A DNA stretch of 35,821 nt from a virus (lineage: Duplodnaviria > Heunggongvirae > Uroviricota > Caudoviricetes): IMG/VR virus record IMGVR_UViG_2698536369_000023; one strand, given 5' to 3'. Made by a program: the position numbers and the translations under genes. A model generated the notes under the pieces. That model saw only the letters and a list, made by a program, of their open reading frames with translations. It was not told the DNA's origin and did not search any database. Positions 4,269 through 21,067 of the stretch are shown one piece after another. Positions within the stretch are counted from its first letter, which is position 1, and every line of letters starts with the position of its first letter.

Positions 4269-4437
4269 TATCGCGTCCTCAACAATGAATTTTGTGATGC
4301 AGTGCCTGGTGCCTCCAGGTGACGTTAACCAGTTAACAATTAACGCCGGATACAGAGAATCCACCCATAACACTGTTTTTGGTTTTAACTGTTCCGCGTG
4401 CGCTTAGCCGCATTCACCGCATCACAAAATTCACTTT

Positions 4438-4495
4438 AAAAAGGGCGGCAGAGCAGTCACGGAGTAAAACTGATACCGCCAAACGTCACCAGAAA
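4438..4495 (-). ncRNA. dicF: DicF small regulatory RNA (ftsZ-targeting antisense sRNA)
   Basis: Reverse complement of 4438-4495 reads TTTCTGGTGACGTTTGGCGGTATCAGTTTTACTCCGTGACTGCTCTGCCGCCCTTTTT, matching recalled DicF; it lies between ydfC and dicB as in Qin. Confidence 0.75.
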
Positions 4496-4835
4496 ATTGA
4501 TAACAGAGGGCGTTGCAGCGGGGTTGTCACTTAAGCGTATGGTCAACCTGACAACTCGGTGTCCTCAACGGGGAAGGAATAACCCCGCCATACTTACCGC
4601 CGCGCCATTTCGCGGAGTGCCACAACCGGAAGCGCACGGTCGACGAAAATTTAACGACAGGCTATCTATGAACCAGCTACCTCGCCGTGCGCTTTCGCGT
4701 TATGGTCTGACTTTTCAGGGAAATATCCTTTCAGTAAACTGTCAGTGCCGGATGCTCACCCGTGTCCGGCGCACGCACTCCACCTCACCCGTGGAGAACT
4801 CCTTAATTACCAACCTTAGCTTCGTTGGTTAGCTA

Positions 4836-5054
4836 TTAACGCGGGTATGTAATCATTCTGGCAATGCTTAATGCCGCTGCTTTTTCCAGATTGGTGATAT
4901 CCTGCTCCAGAGCGGACAGATTTTCAGCCTGCTTAGCCCTGGCTTCATTGGCCCATTTCAGATCCTGCGCTGCATTAATTTTCTGGCGCATCCACTCATA
5001 AAGTTCATCATCGGTATAGTCTGGCGCGATGATGACGGGTTCTCGTTTCTGCAT
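4836..5054 (-). CDS. ydfC: YdfC-like protein (dicB operon)
   Basis: 72-aa ORF with GAGGA N6 ATG RBS; sequence MQKREPVIIAPDYTDDELYEW... matches recalled YdfC. Confidence 0.7.
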   Translation of the reverse strand: MQKREPVIIAPDYTDDELYEWMRQKINAAQDLKWANEARAKQAENLSALEQDITNLEKAAALSIARMITYPR

Positions 5055-5083
5055 ACTGATTCCTCGCGGTGCTGTTTCGCTTA

Positions 5084-5212
5084 TCAGCCGTTAGATTTTG
5101 CCGAACTGGAAAGCGCCTGTTTAAATTCGTTGAAGCTGAGAGCTTCTTCGCCGTCGGCAAGACCTTCGAAGTATTCTTCGTAAGCCTTTTCCATGATTGT
5201 GTCGAAATCCAT
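5084..5212 (-). CDS. ydfB: YdfB-like small acidic protein (dicB operon)
   Basis: 42-aa ORF MDFDTIMEKAYEEYFEGLADGEEALSFNEFKQALSSSAKSNG found by manual translation (below the track's size cut-off); AGGTGA RBS; starts 2 nt after the ydfA stop. Confidence 0.6.
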   Translation of the reverse strand: MDFDTIMEKAYEEYFEGLADGEEALSFNEFKQALSSSAKSNG

Positions 5213-5213
5213 A

Positions 5214-5369
5214 TCACTCACCTGAGTTTCTTTCCAGCCAGCGACGGGCACCATTTTCGGTTTTAAACGTTTTGCTTTTGGTATACGTCATCACGGTGAA
5301 CGTACCGTCCTGGTTGGGGAACACGCCACATACCAGAGATTCGTTGTTGCCAAGATTGAGCATATCCAT
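5214..5369 (-). CDS. ydfA: YdfA-like protein (first gene of dicB operon)
   Basis: 51-aa product MDMLNLGNNESLVCGVFPNQDGTFTVMTYTKSKTFKTENGARRWLERNSGE with GAGG N5 ATG RBS. The track ORF extends to 5450; that alternative start cannot be excluded. Confidence 0.6.
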   Translation of the reverse strand: MDMLNLGNNESLVCGVFPNQDGTFTVMTYTKSKTFKTENGARRWLERNSGE

Positions 5370-5576
5370 GTTGACCTCATTTCCCCTTAACGCCGGGGTA
5401 GCGGAACAAAAACCTGCTGCATAGTTATTAAAGTTGAACCCTGCCGTCATGTTCTTACGCCTCGGGCTGGCTACTTAACCCCTGACCACTGCCGGGTAAC
5501 TCGAAGTATTGCCTGGCGTTCTGTGGGGCGGGGTGGGTTGATGAATGAACAATACCACTACTATTTAATTATGTAA

Positions 5577-5589
5577 ATAGCATTGCTAT
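5577..5589. promoter_or_regulatory. Candidate leftward operator (O_L-like): 13-bp palindrome ATAGCATTGCTAT upstream of the dicB operon
   Basis: Perfect inverted half-sites ATAGCA / TGCTAT around one central base; the same TGCTAT half-site recurs twice in the repressor-cro intergenic region. Confidence 0.45.
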
Positions 5590-5600
5590 TATCGTGGCAA

Positions 5601-5625
5601 GAAAAAAACCACCCGAAGGTGGTTG
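5601..5625 (-). terminator. Rho-independent terminator ending the repressor-antitoxin-toxin transcript
   Basis: Minus-strand hairpin AACCACC-TTCG-GGTGGTT followed by a run of 7 T, 14 nt downstream of the toxin stop. Confidence 0.65.
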
Positions 5626-5638
5626 TTGACAGGAAGGA

Positions 5639-5929
5639 TTAACAGGTTTTGTTTGGATACTGTCTTCGTGAGTGAACTACATTTACGATCTCGATGTTAG
5701 ATGCTGTTACTCGGTAAAGTATTATGTAGTTAGGATGAGTCACTATCTCACGAAGACTTGGAACTCTTTCGCTCGGTGGGTACAGATAAGGGTGTTCAGT
5801 AAGTGACAAAACTGATGTTTCAATGCGTATTTTTAGTCTACGTGCAGCGGGAGGGTTTTCCTTAGCAATATAGGCTACGATCTGACGTAAATCATCACGT
5901 GCAGAAGGTAGCCATAAAATGGGCAGCAT
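5639..5929 (-). CDS. parE: ParE/RelE-superfamily toxin (ParE2-like)
   Basis: 96-aa ORF with ParE-like sequence (plasmid stabilization toxin family); ATGA overlap with the upstream antitoxin. Confidence 0.75.
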   Translation of the reverse strand: MLPILWLPSARDDLRQIVAYIAKENPPAARRLKIRIETSVLSLTEHPYLYPPSERVPSLREIVTHPNYIILYRVTASNIEIVNVVHSRRQYPNKTC

Positions 5930-6120
5930 TACTCACTCCTGTTCGTTGCAGCTAATTGAGCAATAAGGTTTTCCATTTCAGCCATTACTTCGTCATGTGG
6001 AATTGCAGGACGGGGATCTGAGAGGCTTGCTGCCACTTTGGTTCGCAACCATTCGTTATAGCTGTTTTCTTGTTCGACTGTTTCAAATTCAGAAATTATC
6101 GGGGAAAGGGCTGTACTCAT
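5929..6120 (-). CDS. paaA: PaaA2-like antitoxin (63 aa)
   Basis: 63-aa acidic ORF directly upstream of and overlapping the ParE-like toxin; motif SEFETVEQENSYNEWLRTKV resembles recalled PaaA2 of the O157 paaR2-paaA2-parE2 system. Confidence 0.65.
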   Translation of the reverse strand: MSTALSPIISEFETVEQENSYNEWLRTKVAASLSDPRPAIPHDEVMAEMENLIAQLAATNRSE

Positions 6121-6137
6121 GTTTTTACCTCCTCAGA

Positions 6138-6638
6138 TTAGGCGCGACGACCCTTTTGCGCAGCTAGCCATCGCGCAACGATTTCTTCAATTGATTCTTT
6201 TTTCTCCTTCATTTCCTTAAGCATTTTCTCTTTATCTTCTTTGGGGAAAGCCCTGAACGTCTGGAGCAAATCCCGCTCCATGGGGTCTATATTAAACGGA
6301 AGTTCGTTTTCCGATTGTTCCATATCTGCAGATATAGTGACAACATTGTCCTCCCCAGATTCTTGGGGATACATCCTTACAATTTGTAACAACTCGGCCA
6401 TATCTGGTCTGATTGACTCGGGAGGAACTTGCAGCAACCCTGCGAACTTGATAACAGCCTCAAGATTTAAAGGTGTCTGACCATTTAGATAATGGCTTAC
6501 AGCTCCCTGTGTCGAAAATCCCAGAATTTCTGCCGCACGCTCTTGGGTTAACCCTAGTTGATTTTTTTTCGCCGTCCAGATTTCTTTCAGTCTCTGGGCG
6601 GCTTGCAGGTCGATCTCTGACAGGGATTTTCTTTTCAT
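6138..6638 (-). CDS. paaR: HTH (XRE/Cro-C1 type) transcriptional regulator; PaaR2-like and probably the prophage immunity repressor (no LexA-type peptidase domain)
   Basis: 166 aa with N-terminal HTH (LGLTQERAAEILGFSTQGAVSHYLNG); divergent from a Cro-like gene; 17-nt gap to the antitoxin; the ATG has almost no SD spacing (possibly leaderless). Confidence 0.65.
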   Translation of the reverse strand: MKRKSLSEIDLQAAQRLKEIWTAKKNQLGLTQERAAEILGFSTQGAVSHYLNGQTPLNLEAVIKFAGLLQVPPESIRPDMAELLQIVRMYPQESGEDNVVTISADMEQSENELPFNIDPMERDLLQTFRAFPKEDKEKMLKEMKEKKESIEEIVARWLAAQKGRRA

Positions 6639-6674
6639 ACCTTCAATTCTAATAAGATTATTAATCTCTTTGAA

Positions 6675-6687
6675 ATAGTGATGCTAT
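6675..6687. promoter_or_regulatory. Candidate operator O_R site 1 (ATAGTGATGCTAT)
   Basis: 13-bp near-palindrome sharing the TGCTAT half-site with the O_L candidate; ends on the first base of the proposed -35 of the rightward promoter. Confidence 0.4.
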
Positions 6688-6715
6688 TTACTTTTAAAAA
6701 TAACAATGCTATTAA
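6687..6715 (+). promoter_or_regulatory. Putative P_R-like sigma70 promoter for the cro-like operon
   Basis: -35 TTTACT (6687-6692), 17-nt spacer, -10 TATTAA (6710-6715), followed by RBS GAGGTG and ATG at 6746. Confidence 0.35.
6700..6712. promoter_or_regulatory. Candidate operator O_R site 2 (ATAACAATGCTAT)
   Basis: 13-bp near-palindrome 25 bp from site 1; overlaps the proposed -10 element. Confidence 0.4.
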
Positions 6716-6745
6716 TGATCGTGATGACATCACATGAGGTGAACA

Positions 6746-7021
6746 ATGAATCTTGGAGAATATTTGCATCATTCCGGTATAACTCAGAAGCATTTTGCTG
6801 AAATTGTTGGGGTAACCCAAGGGATGGTAAGCCATGTCATTACCGGACGGGCGAAACTTACGGGGAAAAAAATTTTACGCTGGTGCGAAGCAACAGGCTG
6901 GATAGTAACTCCGCACGAGATTGATGGCAGTACTTATCCCAACCCAACCGACGGCTTACCTGTCGAGTATCAGGCTAACACACAACCAGAGGCGGGGGTG
7001 ATTCATGAAAATCAAGCATGA
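6746..7021 (+). CDS. Cro-like HTH regulator (YdaS/Cro family)
   Basis: 91 aa with HTH motif QKHFAEIVGVTQGMVSHVITG; divergent from the repressor; RBS GAGGTG. Confidence 0.7.
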   Translation: MNLGEYLHHSGITQKHFAEIVGVTQGMVSHVITGRAKLTGKKILRWCEATGWIVTPHEIDGSTYPNPTDGLPVEYQANTQPEAGVIHENQA

Positions 7022-7430
7022 ACACATCCGCATGGCAATGAATGCCTGGGCGCATCCGGACGGCGAAAAAGTACCGGCTGCGAAAATTACCAAAGCGTAT
7101 TTCGAGCTGGGAATGACGTTCCCGGAACTGTATGACGACAGCCATCCGGAAGCCCTGGCTCGCAATACTCAGAAAATTTTCCGCTGGGTGGAGAAAGACA
7201 CCCCTGATGCGGTTAAAAAAATTCAGGCGTTGTTACCAGCTATCGAAAAAGCAATGCCACCTCTGCTGGTGGCCCGAATGCGCAGCCACAGTTCTGAATA
7301 TTACCGTGAGATCGTCGAACGGAGGGATCGGCTGGTGAAGGATGTCGATGATTTTGTTGCGTCAGCGGTTGTTTTGTATGACCAGATGAATCGCGGCGGC
7401 CCGGCAGGGAATGCTGTGGTGATGCACTAA
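7005..7430 (+). CDS. YdaT-family protein (CII-like position)
   Basis: 141 aa starting MKIKHEHI..., matching the recalled Rac YdaT N-terminus; overlaps the cro-like gene end by 17 nt. Confidence 0.55.
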   Translation: MKIKHEHIRMAMNAWAHPDGEKVPAAKITKAYFELGMTFPELYDDSHPEALARNTQKIFRWVEKDTPDAVKKIQALLPAIEKAMPPLLVARMRSHSSEYYREIVERRDRLVKDVDDFVASAVVLYDQMNRGGPAGNAVVMH

Positions 7431-13566: not shown

Positions 13567-14030
13567 GGTATTAAAGAATGCCCCCGCACACATAAGTTGA
13601 GCGTCTGAGGTGTGGGGATAGGGAGTTAGTTAAATTGTTATACAACAATATCTGATTTTGTATTGAAGCAAGGAAGAGGTTGCCACATATTGAATCATGC
13701 ACGTGTACGTCAAATGTGGGAGGTCATCGTGCTGGTTCTGAAATGTGCGCTGGCTATTGCGGCTGTAATGGCAATTTATTGTCTTGTTATCGTTCTTATG
13801 GATCACCTTTCTGATTGATTTTATATTGGCGAGGTGACGGGAGTTAAGTAGAATTGCTGCGGGTGCTTGAGGCTGTCTGCCTCAGGCATGAACACCAAAA
13901 GGCAGATAGAGAAAAGCCCCAGTTAACATTACGCGTCCTGCAAGACGCTTAACATTAATCTGAGGCCATATCTATGCTCTACACACGTAGGTTAGCCTCT
14001 TACGTGCCGAAAGGCAAGGAGAAGCAGGCT

Positions 14031-14186
14031 ATGAAGCAGCAAAAGGCGATGCTAATCGCCCTGATCGTCATCTGTTTAACCGTCATAGTGACGGCACTGG
14101 TAACGAGGAAAGACCTCTGCGAGGTACGAATCCGAACCGGCCAGACGGAGGTCGTTGTCTTCACAGCTTACGAACCTGAGGAGTAA
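14031..14186 (+). CDS. hok: Hok/Gef-family type I toxin
   Basis: MKQQKAMLIALIVICLTVIVTALVTRKDLCEVRIRTGQTEVVVFTAYEPEE is a Hok/Gef match; the upstream leader has hok-like fold-back elements; a terminator follows. Confidence 0.85.
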   Translation: MKQQKAMLIALIVICLTVIVTALVTRKDLCEVRIRTGQTEVVVFTAYEPEE

Positions 14187-15686: not shown

Positions 15687-16058
15687 ATGCGTATAGAGTT
15701 TGTTTTGCCTTATCCGCCGACGGTGAATACTTACTGGCGACGTCGTGGCAGCACATATTTTGTATCAAAAGTCGGTGAGTGTTATCGCCGTGATGTGGCG
15801 CTTATTGTTCGCCAGCAGCGGCTGAAATTAAAACTGTCCGGAAGGCTGGCGATAAAGATTATTGCAGAGCCACCGGATAAGCGCCGCCGCGACCTGGACA
15901 ATATCCTGAAAGCACCACTGGATGCGCTGACGCATGCCGGACTTCTCATAGACGACGAGCAGTTTGATGAAATCAATATTGTGCGCGGTCAGCTCGTTCC
16001 TGGTGGGCGACTGGGCGTGAAGATTTGCGAAATCAGAGGTGATGGTAATGGGGCGTGA
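15687..16058 (+). CDS. rusA: Holliday junction resolvase RusA
   Basis: 123 aa with RusA-like core (DKRRRDLDNILKAPLDALTHAGLLIDDEQ). Confidence 0.85.
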   Translation: MRIEFVLPYPPTVNTYWRRRGSTYFVSKVGECYRRDVALIVRQQRLKLKLSGRLAIKIIAEPPDKRRRDLDNILKAPLDALTHAGLLIDDEQFDEINIVRGQLVPGGRLGVKICEIRGDGNGA

Positions 16059-16398
16059 TATGTATGAGGTTTTAGATCGCTGGGGGGCATGGGCTGCAGC
16101 AGAAAATAGCGGTGTCGATTGGCAACCGATAGCAGCGGGCTTCAAGGGGCTTTTGCCACATGGCAAAAAGTCACGTCTCCAGTGTAATGATGATGAAGGC
16201 ATCATGATAGACGGTTGTGTGGCTCGGTTGCGAAAGTATAAACCAGAGGAATATGAGCTGCTCATAGCTCACTTTGTTATTGGTGTTTCTCTACGCTCAA
16301 TCGCGAAGAAACGCAGGTGCTCAGATGGAACTATAAGAAAGGAGCTGCAAACTGCATTAGGCTTTATTGATGGATGTATATGCTTGATTCTATCATAA
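16048..16398 (+). CDS. Late gene antitermination protein Q (QuuD/phage-82 type)
   Basis: VLDRWGAWAAAENSGVDWQPIAAGFKGLL resembles the recalled QuuD N-terminus; start ambiguous between 16039, 16048 and 16060; overlaps the rusA end. Confidence 0.7.
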   Translation: MGRDMYEVLDRWGAWAAAENSGVDWQPIAAGFKGLLPHGKKSRLQCNDDEGIMIDGCVARLRKYKPEEYELLIAHFVIGVSLRSIAKKRRCSDGTIRKELQTALGFIDGCICLILS

Positions 16399-16411
16399 GT
16401 TATGACTGTTA

Positions 16412-16798
16412 CTACTCGTTTGCTTGAGCTTTCGATTCGGCGTCAGATAAAGCATCAATACGAATATTTATGTTTTTTAATAGCTTATTGTCTAGATCGA
16501 TAAGACATTGGTTGTAGTGCGCAATTTGGTCTGGTGTTAGGTTAGGGTTGGCCAGGCAGTTCGTGATGAATTTTCTGGCCGTTTTTATTTCCCTTTTCAT
16601 TCTTACATCATTAAGCGTAGGCAAACCTATGTAAGCGATAAGAAGAATTACCACATGAGATAAGCCGACAGCAGCTCCAGGCGCCAATGATTTGAAGAAG
16701 GCTAATTGAGGAAGCCAGTCAAAAAGGAAATTCAATCCCGCAGTGATAAGGGTGGTAAACCATGCCTGCATTGCCAGGTAGGATTTAGTGTTCGCCAT
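16412..16798 (-). CDS. Unknown cassette protein C: 128 aa, two predicted N-terminal TM helices and a C-terminal soluble/coiled-coil-like tail
   Basis: Third gene of a tightly packed minus-strand operon; hydrophobic stretches AWFTTLITAGLNFLF and GAAVGLSHVVILLIAYIGL; AT-rich by eye; no family recognised. Confidence 0.6.
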   Translation of the reverse strand: MANTKSYLAMQAWFTTLITAGLNFLFDWLPQLAFFKSLAPGAAVGLSHVVILLIAYIGLPTLNDVRMKREIKTARKFITNCLANPNLTPDQIAHYNQCLIDLDNKLLKNINIRIDALSDAESKAQANE

Positions 16799-17044
16799 TC
16801 ACCTTCCTGCACTTGCTTCGTTGCGAGTTTTGAGTTCGCGTAGCAGTAGCGCCAACTCTTCTGCGTCATTTTCGTTTCTAACGCTGACTTTCCTTTTAGC
16901 GGTTCTGCCTTCAGGATCGGTGTAGGTTAGTTCAATATACGCATTCGGCTTTACCCAAACCAAGAACCTAAGCACAGCATATCTGACCGTCGCTGCGACA
17001 GCCATGAATACAGTGATGTAAAGCATAATGCTTAGGATTGACAT
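16799..17044 (-). CDS. Unknown cassette protein B: 81 aa, one N-terminal TM helix and a charged C-terminus
   Basis: Stop abuts the start of gene C; begins 3 nt after the gene A stop; hydrophobic MSILSIMLYITVFMAVAATV. Confidence 0.55.
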   Translation of the reverse strand: MSILSIMLYITVFMAVAATVRYAVLRFLVWVKPNAYIELTYTDPEGRTAKRKVSVRNENDAEELALLLRELKTRNEASAGR

Positions 17045-17047
17045 GAT

Positions 17048-17926
17048 TTAAAGTAGTTTCCTATCTGCCGCCGCTCTGTGGCGTATAACCTTAGTAATAC
17101 TATAGCGTGGTTTAGACAGCGCGCCATTTGTTTCTTTTGTTGTTTCTGTCAGTTCTACAACAAAAAGATCACCCTTACAGAATGCTGCTTGGTTGTGTTC
17201 AACCCGTTCAAGAAAAGCCTCATCTTTCATAGATGCGCTAACTTCTTCGCCATTTGGCAGGATGATATCCCAGCTTTTGCCTTGCTTGAATCGAACATTA
17301 GCAAAATGTACATTAGCTTGGCGTGTCGTTACGTGCGTTTTCTCGACAAAGGTGGATTTTGCAGTTTTAAAACTTACTGCTTCAGCTTGCGTCACCCTGA
17401 CTACCTTATGCTTCTGCTGTGAAACTGAGAACGTGGATGGTTTTTCAGTCTGCAGGGGTTTATAGATTAATTTATCCAGTTCTTTTCGGATGATTGGACT
17501 GGTTATTAATTTTTGAATGTCGTTACTGCATTTAACCTTCTCACCATCCACTTCGATTTCTGCTGTATCTTTTTGTTCATCGACGACAATGGAGCTGATT
17601 TTACGCCCTTTGAGCCATTCGATTATCCCGAGTACGCCACCTGCGGCAACTCCACCACCTGCAACGAGGCCAAGGGCGTTAATAGTTTTTATGCTCCCCA
17701 TCACAGCAACAAGCAAAGTAAATGAACCTTCTTTTGTTGCCTTGATGTTGACTTTCGGCTCTGCTGTTTCGCCATTAATTATTTTTTCGGCGTGTTCAAT
17801 CAGGGCACTAAGAGAGGTTAAGGCTTCGCCTAATGTTTTCGCGTCGATCTGATTATCTGCGTATGCCTCTCCACCGTAGGCAATTTCGATTTCTGTTATT
17901 GGCATGTTTTCGAGTTGCTGCGTCAT
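17048..17926 (-). CDS. Unknown cassette protein A: about 292 aa with an internal glycine-zipper hydrophobic segment and a beta-rich-looking C-terminal half
   Basis: Start placed at ATG 17926 with AAAGGA N8 RBS (the track ORF begins at a GTG at 17959); segment GLVAGGGVAAGGVLGIIEWL; no recognisable family. Confidence 0.6.
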   Translation of the reverse strand: MTQQLENMPITEIEIAYGGEAYADNQIDAKTLGEALTSLSALIEHAEKIINGETAEPKVNIKATKEGSFTLLVAVMGSIKTINALGLVAGGGVAAGGVLGIIEWLKGRKISSIVVDEQKDTAEIEVDGEKVKCSNDIQKLITSPIIRKELDKLIYKPLQTEKPSTFSVSQQKHKVVRVTQAEAVSFKTAKSTFVEKTHVTTRQANVHFANVRFKQGKSWDIILPNGEEVSASMKDEAFLERVEHNQAAFCKGDLFVVELTETTKETNGALSKPRYSITKVIRHRAAADRKLL

Positions 17927-17971
17927 CAAAAGCATCCTTTGCGCAAGAGAAATAGCCACAGGATACAGATA

Positions 17972-18001
17972 ATTATGAAAAAATCACTAACGCGTACGCA
18001 A
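17972..18001 (-). promoter_or_regulatory. Candidate sigma70 promoter for the three-gene cassette
   Basis: Minus-strand -35 TTGCGT (17996-18001), 18-nt spacer, -10 CATAAT (17972-17977), about 45 nt upstream of the proposed start. Eyeball prediction only. Confidence 0.25.
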
Positions 18002-18046
18002 AAACTATCTTAATCTGTTAAGAGTGGTCGCTTCGCCACACAACTT

Positions 18047-18071
18047 AAACCCGCATCAAGCGGGTTTTTTT
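18047..18071 (+). terminator. Plus-strand rho-independent terminator (tR'-like) upstream of the tRNA/lysis region
   Basis: ACCCGC-ATCAA-GCGGGT hairpin followed by 7 T. Confidence 0.65.
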
Positions 18072-18191
18072 GTGCCACTTATCTCGGATAGACATGGTGA
18101 ATGCGCTGGTGGAGGAGATAAGGGTGATTTTTAACCAGGTGATTTTTGAATGCTTGCAACATTGATTTTGTAACGTTATTATCCTGCGCCC

Positions 18192-18267
18192 GGCCCTTTA
18201 GCTCAGTGGTGAGAGCGAGCGACTCATAATCGCCAGGTCGCTGGTTCAAATCCAGCAAGGGCCACCA
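18192..18267 (+). tRNA. tRNA with anticodon CAT (Ile2/Met type)
   Basis: Cloverleaf foldable by eye: acceptor GGCCCTT/AAGGGCC, anticodon loop CTCATAA, T-loop GGTTCAAATCC, 3' CCA encoded. Confidence 0.85.
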
Positions 18268-18268
18268 G

Positions 18269-18345
18269 CCGCCACTAGCTCATCAGGAAAGAGCGTCAAC
18301 CCTTTAAGTTGAGTGTGCGAGGTTCGAGTCCCCGGTGGCGGTCCA
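18269..18345 (+). tRNA. tRNA with atypical anticodon loop CCTTTAA (UUU/Lys by canonical positions, C at position 33)
   Basis: Perfect 7-bp acceptor stem CCGCCAC/GTGGCGG, D-stem GCTC/GAGC, anticodon stem TCAAC/GTTGA, T-loop TTCGAGT, CCA encoded; one A-C mismatch in the T-stem. Confidence 0.6.
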
Positions 18346-18347
18346 GT

Positions 18348-18423
<76 letters not shown>

Positions 18424-18426
18424 TAT

Positions 18427-18501
<75 letters not shown>

Positions 18502-18792: not shown

Positions 18793-19008
18793 ATGAAATC
18801 CATGGACAAAATTTCAACGGGCATTGCCTACGGCACCTCCGCAGGCAGTGCTGGCTACTGGTTTTTACAGTGGCTTGATCAGGTCAGTCCGTCACAGTGG
18901 GCTGCGATTGGTGTACTGGGGAGTCTGGTTCTGGGCTTCCTGACTTATCTGACAAATCTGTACTTCAAAATCAGAGAAGACAAACGTAAGGCTGCACGGG
19001 GAGAGTAA
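18793..19008 (+). CDS. S: Class II pinholin (phage 21 S21-type) with dual-start motif
   Basis: 71 aa beginning [27 protein letters not shown]...; the two Met codons (M1, M4) fit the antiholin/holin dual start; GGAGGTGAGG RBS. Confidence 0.85.
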
Positions 19009-19255: not shown

Positions 19256-19552
19256 TTATTCAATGTCTGGTAGCTTATCAAAGATTTCAGATACTCTTAT
19301 ATTTGTCATATAAGCAAATTGAGATTCTGCCAGCTCTTTGGGTGATTTTCCCGCTTTTTCTGAGCCAAAAATTGTTTCTAAAGCCAGCATGTTATATTTG
19401 AGAACCTCTTCTCGAGTTTTACCTGATAATTTTGCGGTAACAGCAATATAAAAAGGCAACACTTTATCCAGAAGGTCGTTGTGTTTTGTCAGTTGTGGTA
19501 ATACCACATCAAGTTGCTTACTGATTGGTTTGAATGGATCTATACCGTTCAT
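19256..19552 (-). CDS. Hypothetical protein, convergent with the late operon (moron)
   Basis: 98-aa minus-strand ORF with AAGGGAA N7 ATG RBS; AT-rich by eye; no family recognised. Confidence 0.55.
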   Translation of the reverse strand: MNGIDPFKPISKQLDVVLPQLTKHNDLLDKVLPFYIAVTAKLSGKTREEVLKYNMLALETIFGSEKAGKSPKELAESQFAYMTNIRVSEIFDKLPDIE

Positions 19553-20716: not shown

Positions 20717-21067
20717 ATGCCATCACGAATCCCACGCGCCTGCCGTAAGCGTGGATGTGCAGGTACAACCACAGACAGTTCTGGTTACTGCGATAAACAT
20801 CGTGGCGAAGGATGGGTACAGCATCAACGCGGACTGAGTCGCCACCAGCGTGGCTATGGCTCGAAATGGGATGCCATACGTGCGCGCATACTGAAGCGTG
20901 ATAATCATCTGTGTCAGAACTGCCTGCGCAATGGGAGAGCCGTTGAAGCCAGAACTGTGGACCACATCATTCCGAAAGCTCATGGTGGCACGGATGCAGA
21001 CAGTAACCTGCAGAGTCTGTGCTGGCTCTGCCATAAAGCAAAAACAGCGCGCGAACGCATCAATTGA
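20717..21067 (+). CDS. HNH homing endonuclease (terminase-associated)
   Basis: Cys pairs plus HNH core (DHIIPKAHGGTDADSNLQSLCWLCH); located directly upstream of the terminase small subunit. Confidence 0.8.
   Translation: MPSRIPRACRKRGCAGTTTDSSGYCDKHRGEGWVQHQRGLSRHQRGYGSKWDAIRARILKRDNHLCQNCLRNGRAVEARTVDHIIPKAHGGTDADSNLQSLCWLCHKAKTARERIN

Follow-up and report, generated by a model that had tools for sequence, protein, structure and literature searches.

A three-gene operon between Q and the tRNA genes

The DNA analysed here is a 35,821-nucleotide (nt) stretch of a virus of the Caudoviricetes (IMG/VR record IMGVR_UViG_2698536369_000023), referred to below as the window. The interval between its Q antiterminator gene (16039-16398, plus strand; PF06530, E 1e-45, 119 amino acids (aa)) and four plus-strand tRNA genes (18192-18501) is occupied by three open reading frames (ORFs), A, B and C, all on the minus strand, with C convergent with Q. 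Gene A spans 17048-17926 and encodes 292 aa from an ATG at 17926; its ORF extends to 17959 with a GTG, which gives a 303-aa form. The ATG is the likelier start, because it has an AAGGA Shine-Dalgarno sequence 8 nt upstream and coincides with the start called by PGAP. Genes B (16799-17044, 81 aa) and C (16412-16798, 128 aa) follow with stop-to-start spacings of 3 nt (A-B) and 0 nt (B-C) and, as a preliminary description of this DNA had proposed, A, B and C are real genes forming one translationally coupled operon.

The ratio of non-synonymous to synonymous substitutions (dN/dS) between diverged alleles was low for each gene (0.03-0.05 for A, 0.06-0.15 for B and 0.04-0.06 for C), and all three are therefore coding and under strong purifying selection. 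The GC content of the cassette is 0.434, compared with 0.499 for the window, placing it in the bottom 2.6% of sliding windows of the same size; the AT-richness first described as clear is thus present and only moderate. All public sources label A, B and C hypothetical, and PGAP fails to call B in many RefSeq genomes, among them NZ_CP104509.1, despite its conservation and the purifying selection acting on it. The operon is under-annotated in public records.

No family had initially been recognised for any of the three proteins, which holds for B and C inasmuch as each matches a single unannotated PHROG (phrog_27630 for B and phrog_26468 for C). Protein A, in contrast, matched PADLOC's hidden Markov model (HMM) PDLC05015 for the PDC-S42 family with E 3.3e-53 over residues 22-299 of the 303-aa form, and PDC-S42 HMMs were also matched by all 67 of the sampled diverse relatives of A; by these profile matches A is a full-length PDC-S42 member. 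It further scored 225.3 bits against NCBIfam NF053583 (LAPAL_fam; cut-off 60), a family named 'LAPAL motif-containing putative phage structural protein', and covered phrog_3243 from end to end. Using a profile of close A homologues we found about 2,900 family representatives at 50% identity (1,464 at E <=1e-10), nearly all of them 280-315 aa long and matching over their full length. The column of the LAPAL motif corresponds to residues 32-36 of A, which read LGEAL, and the literal LAPAL occurs in 11 of the 67 relatives. Pfam DUF7946 is touched by the N-terminal ~90 residues in about half of the relatives, partially and mostly below the Pfam cut-off. None of the four labels (PDC-S42, NF053583, PHROG 3243, DUF7946) carries an established function for A.

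The AlphaFold model of A (predicted local distance difference test, pLDDT, 77.5; predicted template modelling score, pTM, 0.68) consists of an alpha/beta N-terminal domain, a Gly/Ala-rich hydrophobic stretch, a hairpin-helix middle and a beta-rich C-terminus, the last as had been anticipated from the sequence. The model suggests that this C-terminus bears an OB/S1-like barrel. The hydrophobic stretch lies at about residues 69-105 and reaches a Kyte-Doolittle value of 1.97. Among the 67 relatives the maximal 19-residue Kyte-Doolittle value of this stretch has a median of 1.62, is at least 1.6 in 35 and is never below 1.0, compared with a median of 0.79 outside it; judged by these hydropathy profiles, the stretch is a hallmark of the A family. 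W219, D235, F238 and RHR(282-284) are conserved residues of A.

At its N-terminus protein B has a transmembrane (TM) helix, followed by the conserved LVW-KP motif; a beta-hairpin (..D..G..) and then a short helix make up the remainder. Protein C begins with a helical membrane hairpin (residues 3-57), whose second helix is strongly hydrophobic and has a conserved PG..V..SH motif, and continues with two long helices (residues 62-127) that make up a basic tail, predicted to be cytoplasmic. No holin family was found for B or C in Pfam, PHROGs or NCBIfam, and the window already contains a class II holin gene at 18793-19008. In a separate hhalign comparison, residues 2-46 of B aligned with residues 78-119 of A (probability 6.8%, E 0.005), pairing the TM helix, LVWVKP and first strand of B with the hydrophobic stretch, IEWLKGRK and first strand of A. 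This resemblance may be a remnant of duplication or a form of mimicry; it is too weak for us to claim B as a paralogue of the hydrophobic-plus-hairpin region of A, and we note it as a hint only.

Conservation and spread of the A-B-C triad

Genes A, B and C follow one another directly in all 39 of the 39 fetched loci in which A is at least 43% identical to that of the window, a count that includes two contigs that end early. Divergence is quicker in B and C than in A: a 52% identity in A, for instance, goes with 38% in B and 41% in C. The same architecture is kept in all five sampled relatives whose A is 28-37% identical (loci L046, L047, L052, L055 and L056), each with a B-like protein of 71-81 aa that has one TM segment, a hairpin and a helix, and a C-like protein of 116-134 aa in which TM segments are combined with a helical, charged tail. 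Matches of the B and C profiles to these proteins are weak and fall in the correct order. A-B-C is therefore a triad conserved from E. coli to Orbaceae, so that the 'single-gene' label of PADLOC misdescribes this clade. Relatives of A at about 21-29% identity occur solo or with other neighbours, and one such remote A is preceded by an XRE-type regulator.

Of 5,426 complete E. coli genomes, 37 contain the exact cassette, in each case with an identity of at least 99%; deposited phage genomes gave no match to it at the DNA level. Such rarity combined with near-identity is what one typically sees in accessory cargo. All alleles with A at least 84% identical share the arrangement of the window, directly after and convergent with one Q allele. 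Variants with A about 52% identical lie in the nin region, co-oriented, between hok and DUF968-RusA-Q, while in Gilliamella and Orbaceae prophages (the bee-gut variants) the triad is co-oriented and directly upstream of genes for a membrane protein, an SLT lysozyme and Rz/Rz1. Further copies adjoin a cI-like/Cro region (L052), occupy, in Enterobacter, the cargo end of a VapE/P4-like island, or lie on a contig with a MobA/MobL relaxase or in a TniB (Tn7-like) element. The triad thus moves among unrelated mobile elements, and among different sites and orientations within prophages. The opposite orientation that the preliminary description had taken as a property of the module turned out to be peculiar to some copies, because the nin-region and bee-gut variants are co-oriented; orientation, proximity to lysis genes and proximity to virion genes are all unconserved features of the triad.

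The window has its own hok/gef-type type I toxin gene (PGAP hokD) in the nin region, at about 14022-14177 on the plus strand; it is this hok that the variants with A about 52% identical directly follow elsewhere.

The insertion site and its transcription signals

The extent of the insertion was defined by comparison with a cassette-free prophage (L053, NZ_CP019243.1) whose Q is 95% identical. In this prophage GTTATGAAAAAATCACTAACGCGTACGCAAAAACTAT..GTTAAGAGTGGT..CTTCGCCACACAACTTAAACCCGC and an intrinsic terminator come directly after the Q stop codon. The window equals the L053 sequence up to 16405 and again from 17969 onwards, so that the insert comprises 16406-17968 (1,563 bp). It is bordered by an imperfect direct repeat on the plus strand, with the left copy ATAAGTTATGA at 16395-16405, overlapping the Q stop codon (16396-16398), and the right copy ATAATTATGA at 17969-17978. 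Diverged alleles use the same insertion site with no clean flanking repeat, the 10-bp repeat being clean in the window allele only, and neither terminal inverted repeats nor a transposon-like structure was found in the insert. Nearly all of the insert is operon, with 6 nt past the stop codon of C and 42 nt ahead of the start codon of A. Those 42 nt, the cassette-specific 5' leader (17927-17968, minus strand), hold the AAGGA Shine-Dalgarno sequence and are the only non-coding DNA of the insert upstream of A. A search for structured RNA in the leader and intergenic regions gave tRNAs only in Rfam, and the fold of the leader had a z-score of -0.64.

The Q-linked DNA that resumes at 17969 forms a block on the plus strand (17969-18075) ending in an intrinsic terminator (stem 18047-18067, followed by a T run), and plausibly represents the late-promoter leader with the qut and tR' region. 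We had considered the roughly 110 nt of nearly invariant DNA upstream of A as a control region of the cassette, and rejected this, as from 17969 on it is the native sequence downstream of Q. Measured against L053, the 1.56 kb of the cassette have thus been inserted precisely between Q and the block that natively follows it. Alleles whose A is 84-100% identical have a Q that is 83-100% identical, and by these identities Q and the cassette are co-inherited.

Other cargo was found at the same place. In an E. coli ST131 prophage (L054, NZ_CP049085.2, Q 86% identical), a Dcm cytosine methyltransferase, an antisense HEPN-like nuclease and a DUF262 protein are encoded between Q and the same block (4431-7289 of that locus). 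In L053 itself an ArtAB-like ADP-ribosyltransferase and AB5 binding-subunit pair lies just after the terminator (4577-5863), so that cargo seems to use two separate slots, which lie on either side of the terminator. Other phages, whose Q is different and 229 aa long, pass from Q to the same tRNA-proximal DNA in about 200 bp, without cargo, and cassette-free sibling phages are common. These three comparisons reveal variable cargo with precise junctions in the lambdoid Q-to-lysis moron slot, and bear out the earlier view of a foreign mobile operon in a post-Q cargo hotspot; the interval between Q and the tRNA genes, when compared across prophages as had been suggested, shows the cassette to be a variable island. 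The few bases between Q and the downstream leader are thus a recurrent landing site for cargo that includes methylase and nuclease genes. This Q-adjacent slot is separate from the better-known toxin-gene site after the terminator, a distinction that helps in reading the cargo of prophages in pathogenic E. coli.

Alleles with A 84% identical (L028, at about 2305-2345 of that locus, and L030) carry an extra GC-rich hairpin, AATAACCGGGC..GCTCGGTTATT, between Q and C, which is absent from the window allele. This hairpin could act as a bidirectional terminator and split the Q and C transcription units.

A promoter of its own had been proposed for the minus-strand operon. A consensus scan found none, and because the insert has only 42 nt upstream of A a self-contained promoter in it is unlikely. 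What survives of the proposal is a weak leftward candidate noted by eye at 17972-18001 on the minus strand (TTGCGT at 18001-17996, an 18-nt spacer, and CATAAT at 17977-17972; 8/12 consensus positions), which spans the right junction and lies mostly in the flanking Q-linked DNA; its -35 overlaps a palindrome, GCGTACGC (17992-17999), also within the Q-linked DNA. An alternative -10, GATAAT, is found at the right junction (17968-17973). Transcription of the operon is predicted to start near 17965. On the plus strand a promoter-like site, TTGATG-18-TATCAT, occupies the 3' end of Q (16367-16396) and is also present in L053; it is a possible pR'. All three of these promoter-like sites have scores no better than chance expectation. 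If the site at the end of Q were pR', the late transcript would cross the cassette antisense, and the cassette would put 1.56 kb between the promoter and the conserved leader and terminator. The insertion also poses the question of how late transcription deals with 1.6 kb of inserted antisense DNA. Further to the right, a promoter-like TTGCAA-17-TATTAT followed by the four tRNA genes (18154-18501, plus strand) makes up a flank common to phages that have a different Q and no cassette.

Several other features of the window merit mention. In RefSeq genomes PGAP calls a 36-aa 'antiterminator' coding sequence at 18024-18134 (plus strand), which overlaps the intrinsic terminator (18047-18075), encodes a low-complexity peptide and is probably spurious. 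The first tRNA gene (18192-18267, plus strand), with a CAT anticodon, is tRNA-Met according to ARAGORN and tRNA-Ile according to PGAP; it may be of the lysidine-modified Ile2 type, as in Stx phages. In the lysis region an antisense ORF of 98 aa (19256-19552, minus strand; GC 0.357) lies between a DUF1327/YdfR-like gene and the lysozyme gene, and belongs to no Pfam or PADLOC family. A gene for a ParE-family toxin (5639-5929, minus strand; PF05016, E 7e-18) adjoins the immunity region, where a related prophage (L007) has ParE together with a PaaA2 antitoxin. Directly upstream of the terminase genes is an HNH endonuclease gene (20717-21067, plus strand; PF01844, E 3e-16), the usual HNH-terminase arrangement; its PADLOC matches to ZorE and REase models were dismissed as generic HNH matches.

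Possible function and comparison with known systems

We propose that A-B-C is a mobile accessory ('moron') operon with co-evolving genes, whose most likely role is anti-phage defence or exclusion acting at the inner membrane, a role to which we give about an even chance. Defence or exclusion, already suggested in the preliminary description, becomes the leading hypothesis because A is, by its profile matches, a full-length member of PDC-S42; for the same reason the idea is not novel, being already present in a public catalogue. The PDCs of PADLOC were selected as embedded in BREX, DISARM or type I restriction-modification (RM) loci, by 'guilt-by-embedding' (Payne et al., bioRxiv 10.1101/2024.01.29.577857), and seven of nine related Hma-embedded candidates tested by the same authors were active (bioRxiv 10.1101/2024.01.29.577857). 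We favour this role since the triad is always found on mobile elements and at cargo sites and belongs to a family chosen for such embedding. The Dcm, antisense HEPN-like nuclease and DUF262 genes that fill the same slot beside a related Q lend it further support.

A membrane mechanism can be suggested from the architecture of the three proteins only. A would be a largely cytoplasmic sensor-effector, whose OB/S1-like barrel and alpha/beta N-terminal domain might recognise a phage-derived nucleic acid or protein, and whose hydrophobic Gly/Ala-rich stretch could serve as a membrane-associating or membrane-inserting element. B (predicted N-out, C-in, single pass) and C (a hairpin with a basic helical tail) would face the cytoplasm with their soluble parts, keep A at the membrane or control it there, and contribute to a membrane lesion. 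Upon infection the complex would compromise the integrity or energisation of the membrane, and the infection would be aborted. Remote family members without B and C might perform sensing and membrane action alone.

Several points weigh against this proposal. AlphaFold models the hydrophobic stretch of A as short helices and a low-confidence loop, with no single TM helix, and membrane status is therefore unproven for A; of the three membrane proteins originally predicted, B, with one TM helix, and C, with its membrane hairpin, stand. B and C match none of PADLOC's known defence models. PDC status is itself guilt by embedding only, and none of the loci that we fetched had the triad inside an RM, BREX or DISARM locus. 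We found no paper on PDC-S42, the LAPAL family, DUF7946 or the corresponding accessions and model identifiers, and no description of PDC-S42 in Payne et al. (bioRxiv 10.1101/2024.01.29.577857). Finally, several of the positions adjoin lysis genes or Q, which would fit a phage-serving role as well.

Some inner-membrane proteins of phages, such as SieA, Imm and HK97 gp15, block incoming phages without killing the cell, and A-B-C might likewise act by superinfection exclusion rather than abortive infection, with B, C and a membrane-associated A blocking genome entry or early steps. Two small predicted inner-membrane proteins with cytoplasmic tails would suit such a task, as would carriage at classic prophage moron sites (including the one beside the cI/Cro region in L052) and, in the window, an orientation that fits expression apart from the lytic programme. 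We nevertheless regard it as fairly unlikely, given that the module is also present in a Tn7-like element, a relaxase contig and a P4-like island, that solo A homologues exist without membrane partners, and that PADLOC, Pfam and PHROGs show no similarity to a known Sie protein. These same non-prophage settings, where there are no lysis genes, tell against a module that serves the phage itself by tuning lysis timing or late expression through holin- or antiholin-like proteins and a regulator, as do the copies in nin and immunity regions and the abundance of cassette-free siblings. B and C do resemble holins in size and layout, the Gilliamella and Orbaceae variants are co-oriented directly upstream of lysis genes, and the insert of the window separates Q from the putative late leader; yet the window and the bee-gut loci each have a holin candidate of their own and B and C lack a holin family match, leaving a phage-serving role improbable.

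Stabilisation of the mobile element by an addiction or toxin-antitoxin (TA)-like module, in which one membrane protein is a toxin restrained by the others, seems improbable to a similar degree. The triad is indeed found exclusively on mobile elements, includes small hydrophobic proteins, adjoins hok in its nin-region variants, shares the present prophage with a ParE toxin and, in one remote case, has an A preceded by an XRE-type regulator. Three genes led by a conserved 290-aa multi-domain protein are, however, unlike known membrane TA systems, no TA family was matched in Pfam, PADLOC or NCBIfam, and many TA-like modules are defence systems, so that this explanation overlaps with defence. The name of NF053583, a family whose cut-off of 60 A clearly exceeds with 225 bits, would make A a virion structural protein and B and C unrelated small ORFs. 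We hold this to be very improbable indeed: A was part of a head or tail module in none of more than 45 loci, occurs also in elements without virion genes, is invariably coupled to B and C, two genes under purifying selection, and has a hydrophobic stretch of TM strength. The genomic context argues strongly against a structural role.

Returning to defence or exclusion at the inner membrane, we may ask what is new. The A family and its status as a defence candidate are already known from PADLOC, and the finding opens no new category; the novelty seems to lie in the conserved three-gene organisation, its spread across element types and the exact insertion site. A bolder version, which we hold only tentatively and think rather less probable than its opposite, is that A-B-C represents a new three-component membrane-acting anti-phage system. 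A, the sensor-effector, would have an OB-like domain for recognition and a latent segment that inserts into the membrane, and would be controlled by the fast-evolving B and C (B perhaps mimicking the hydrophobic-segment-plus-hairpin module of A), and the system would be spread by prophages, satellites, plasmids and Tn7-like transposons. If true, this would redefine the 'single-gene' PDC-S42 family. Should the operon prove active, a catalogue entry of about 2,900 representatives would become a defined three-protein system with a membrane mechanism, and the labels 'single gene' and 'phage structural protein' would both be corrected in the databases.

Of the known systems, RexA/RexB of phage lambda had been offered as an analogy, which found no support in fold or topology. 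The shared outline is limited to a ~290-aa non-membrane protein with one or more small membrane proteins in a lambdoid prophage. RexA has no sequence or fold similarity to A in PDB sequence and fold searches, and the RexA, holin and TA families were discarded as candidates after yielding no match in Pfam, NCBIfam, PADLOC or PHROGs or by fold. RexB has four TM helices, compared with one in B and two in C; in addition, the operon of the window differs from RexAB in position, and A has a hydrophobic stretch of its own. Rst_2TM_1TM_TIR, reportedly a P4-hotspot system from the 2022 work of Rousset and colleagues, likewise combines a 2-TM protein, a 1-TM protein and a larger soluble protein, and one triad variant lies in a P4-like island. 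It differs in that A has no TIR domain, and neither A, B nor C matches it in PADLOC.

EACC1 (Pfam PF19953) is a pore-forming effector with a toxic C-terminal part (bioRxiv 10.1101/2025.11.14.688446). Residues 81-140 of A counted from the ATG at 17926 (92-151 from the GTG) gave a weak Pfam match to this toxic part, and both proteins combine a hydrophobic segment with beta strands. No protease, such as the one that activates EACC1, was found in or beside the cassette in any locus. We rejected homology, since the match reached 15.5 bits against a cut-off of 23.6, was shared by one of the 67 family members and came without a partner protease, and take it to be a chance compositional hit. With NF053583 the family score lies well above the cut-off, but A has LGEAL in place of LAPAL and its context contradicts the term 'structural protein'. 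The closest likeness remains that to PDC-S42, in which A shares full-length family membership by its profile matches. PADLOC has no model for B or C and lists PDC-S42 as a single-gene candidate, whereas here and in a large clade the unit is three genes.

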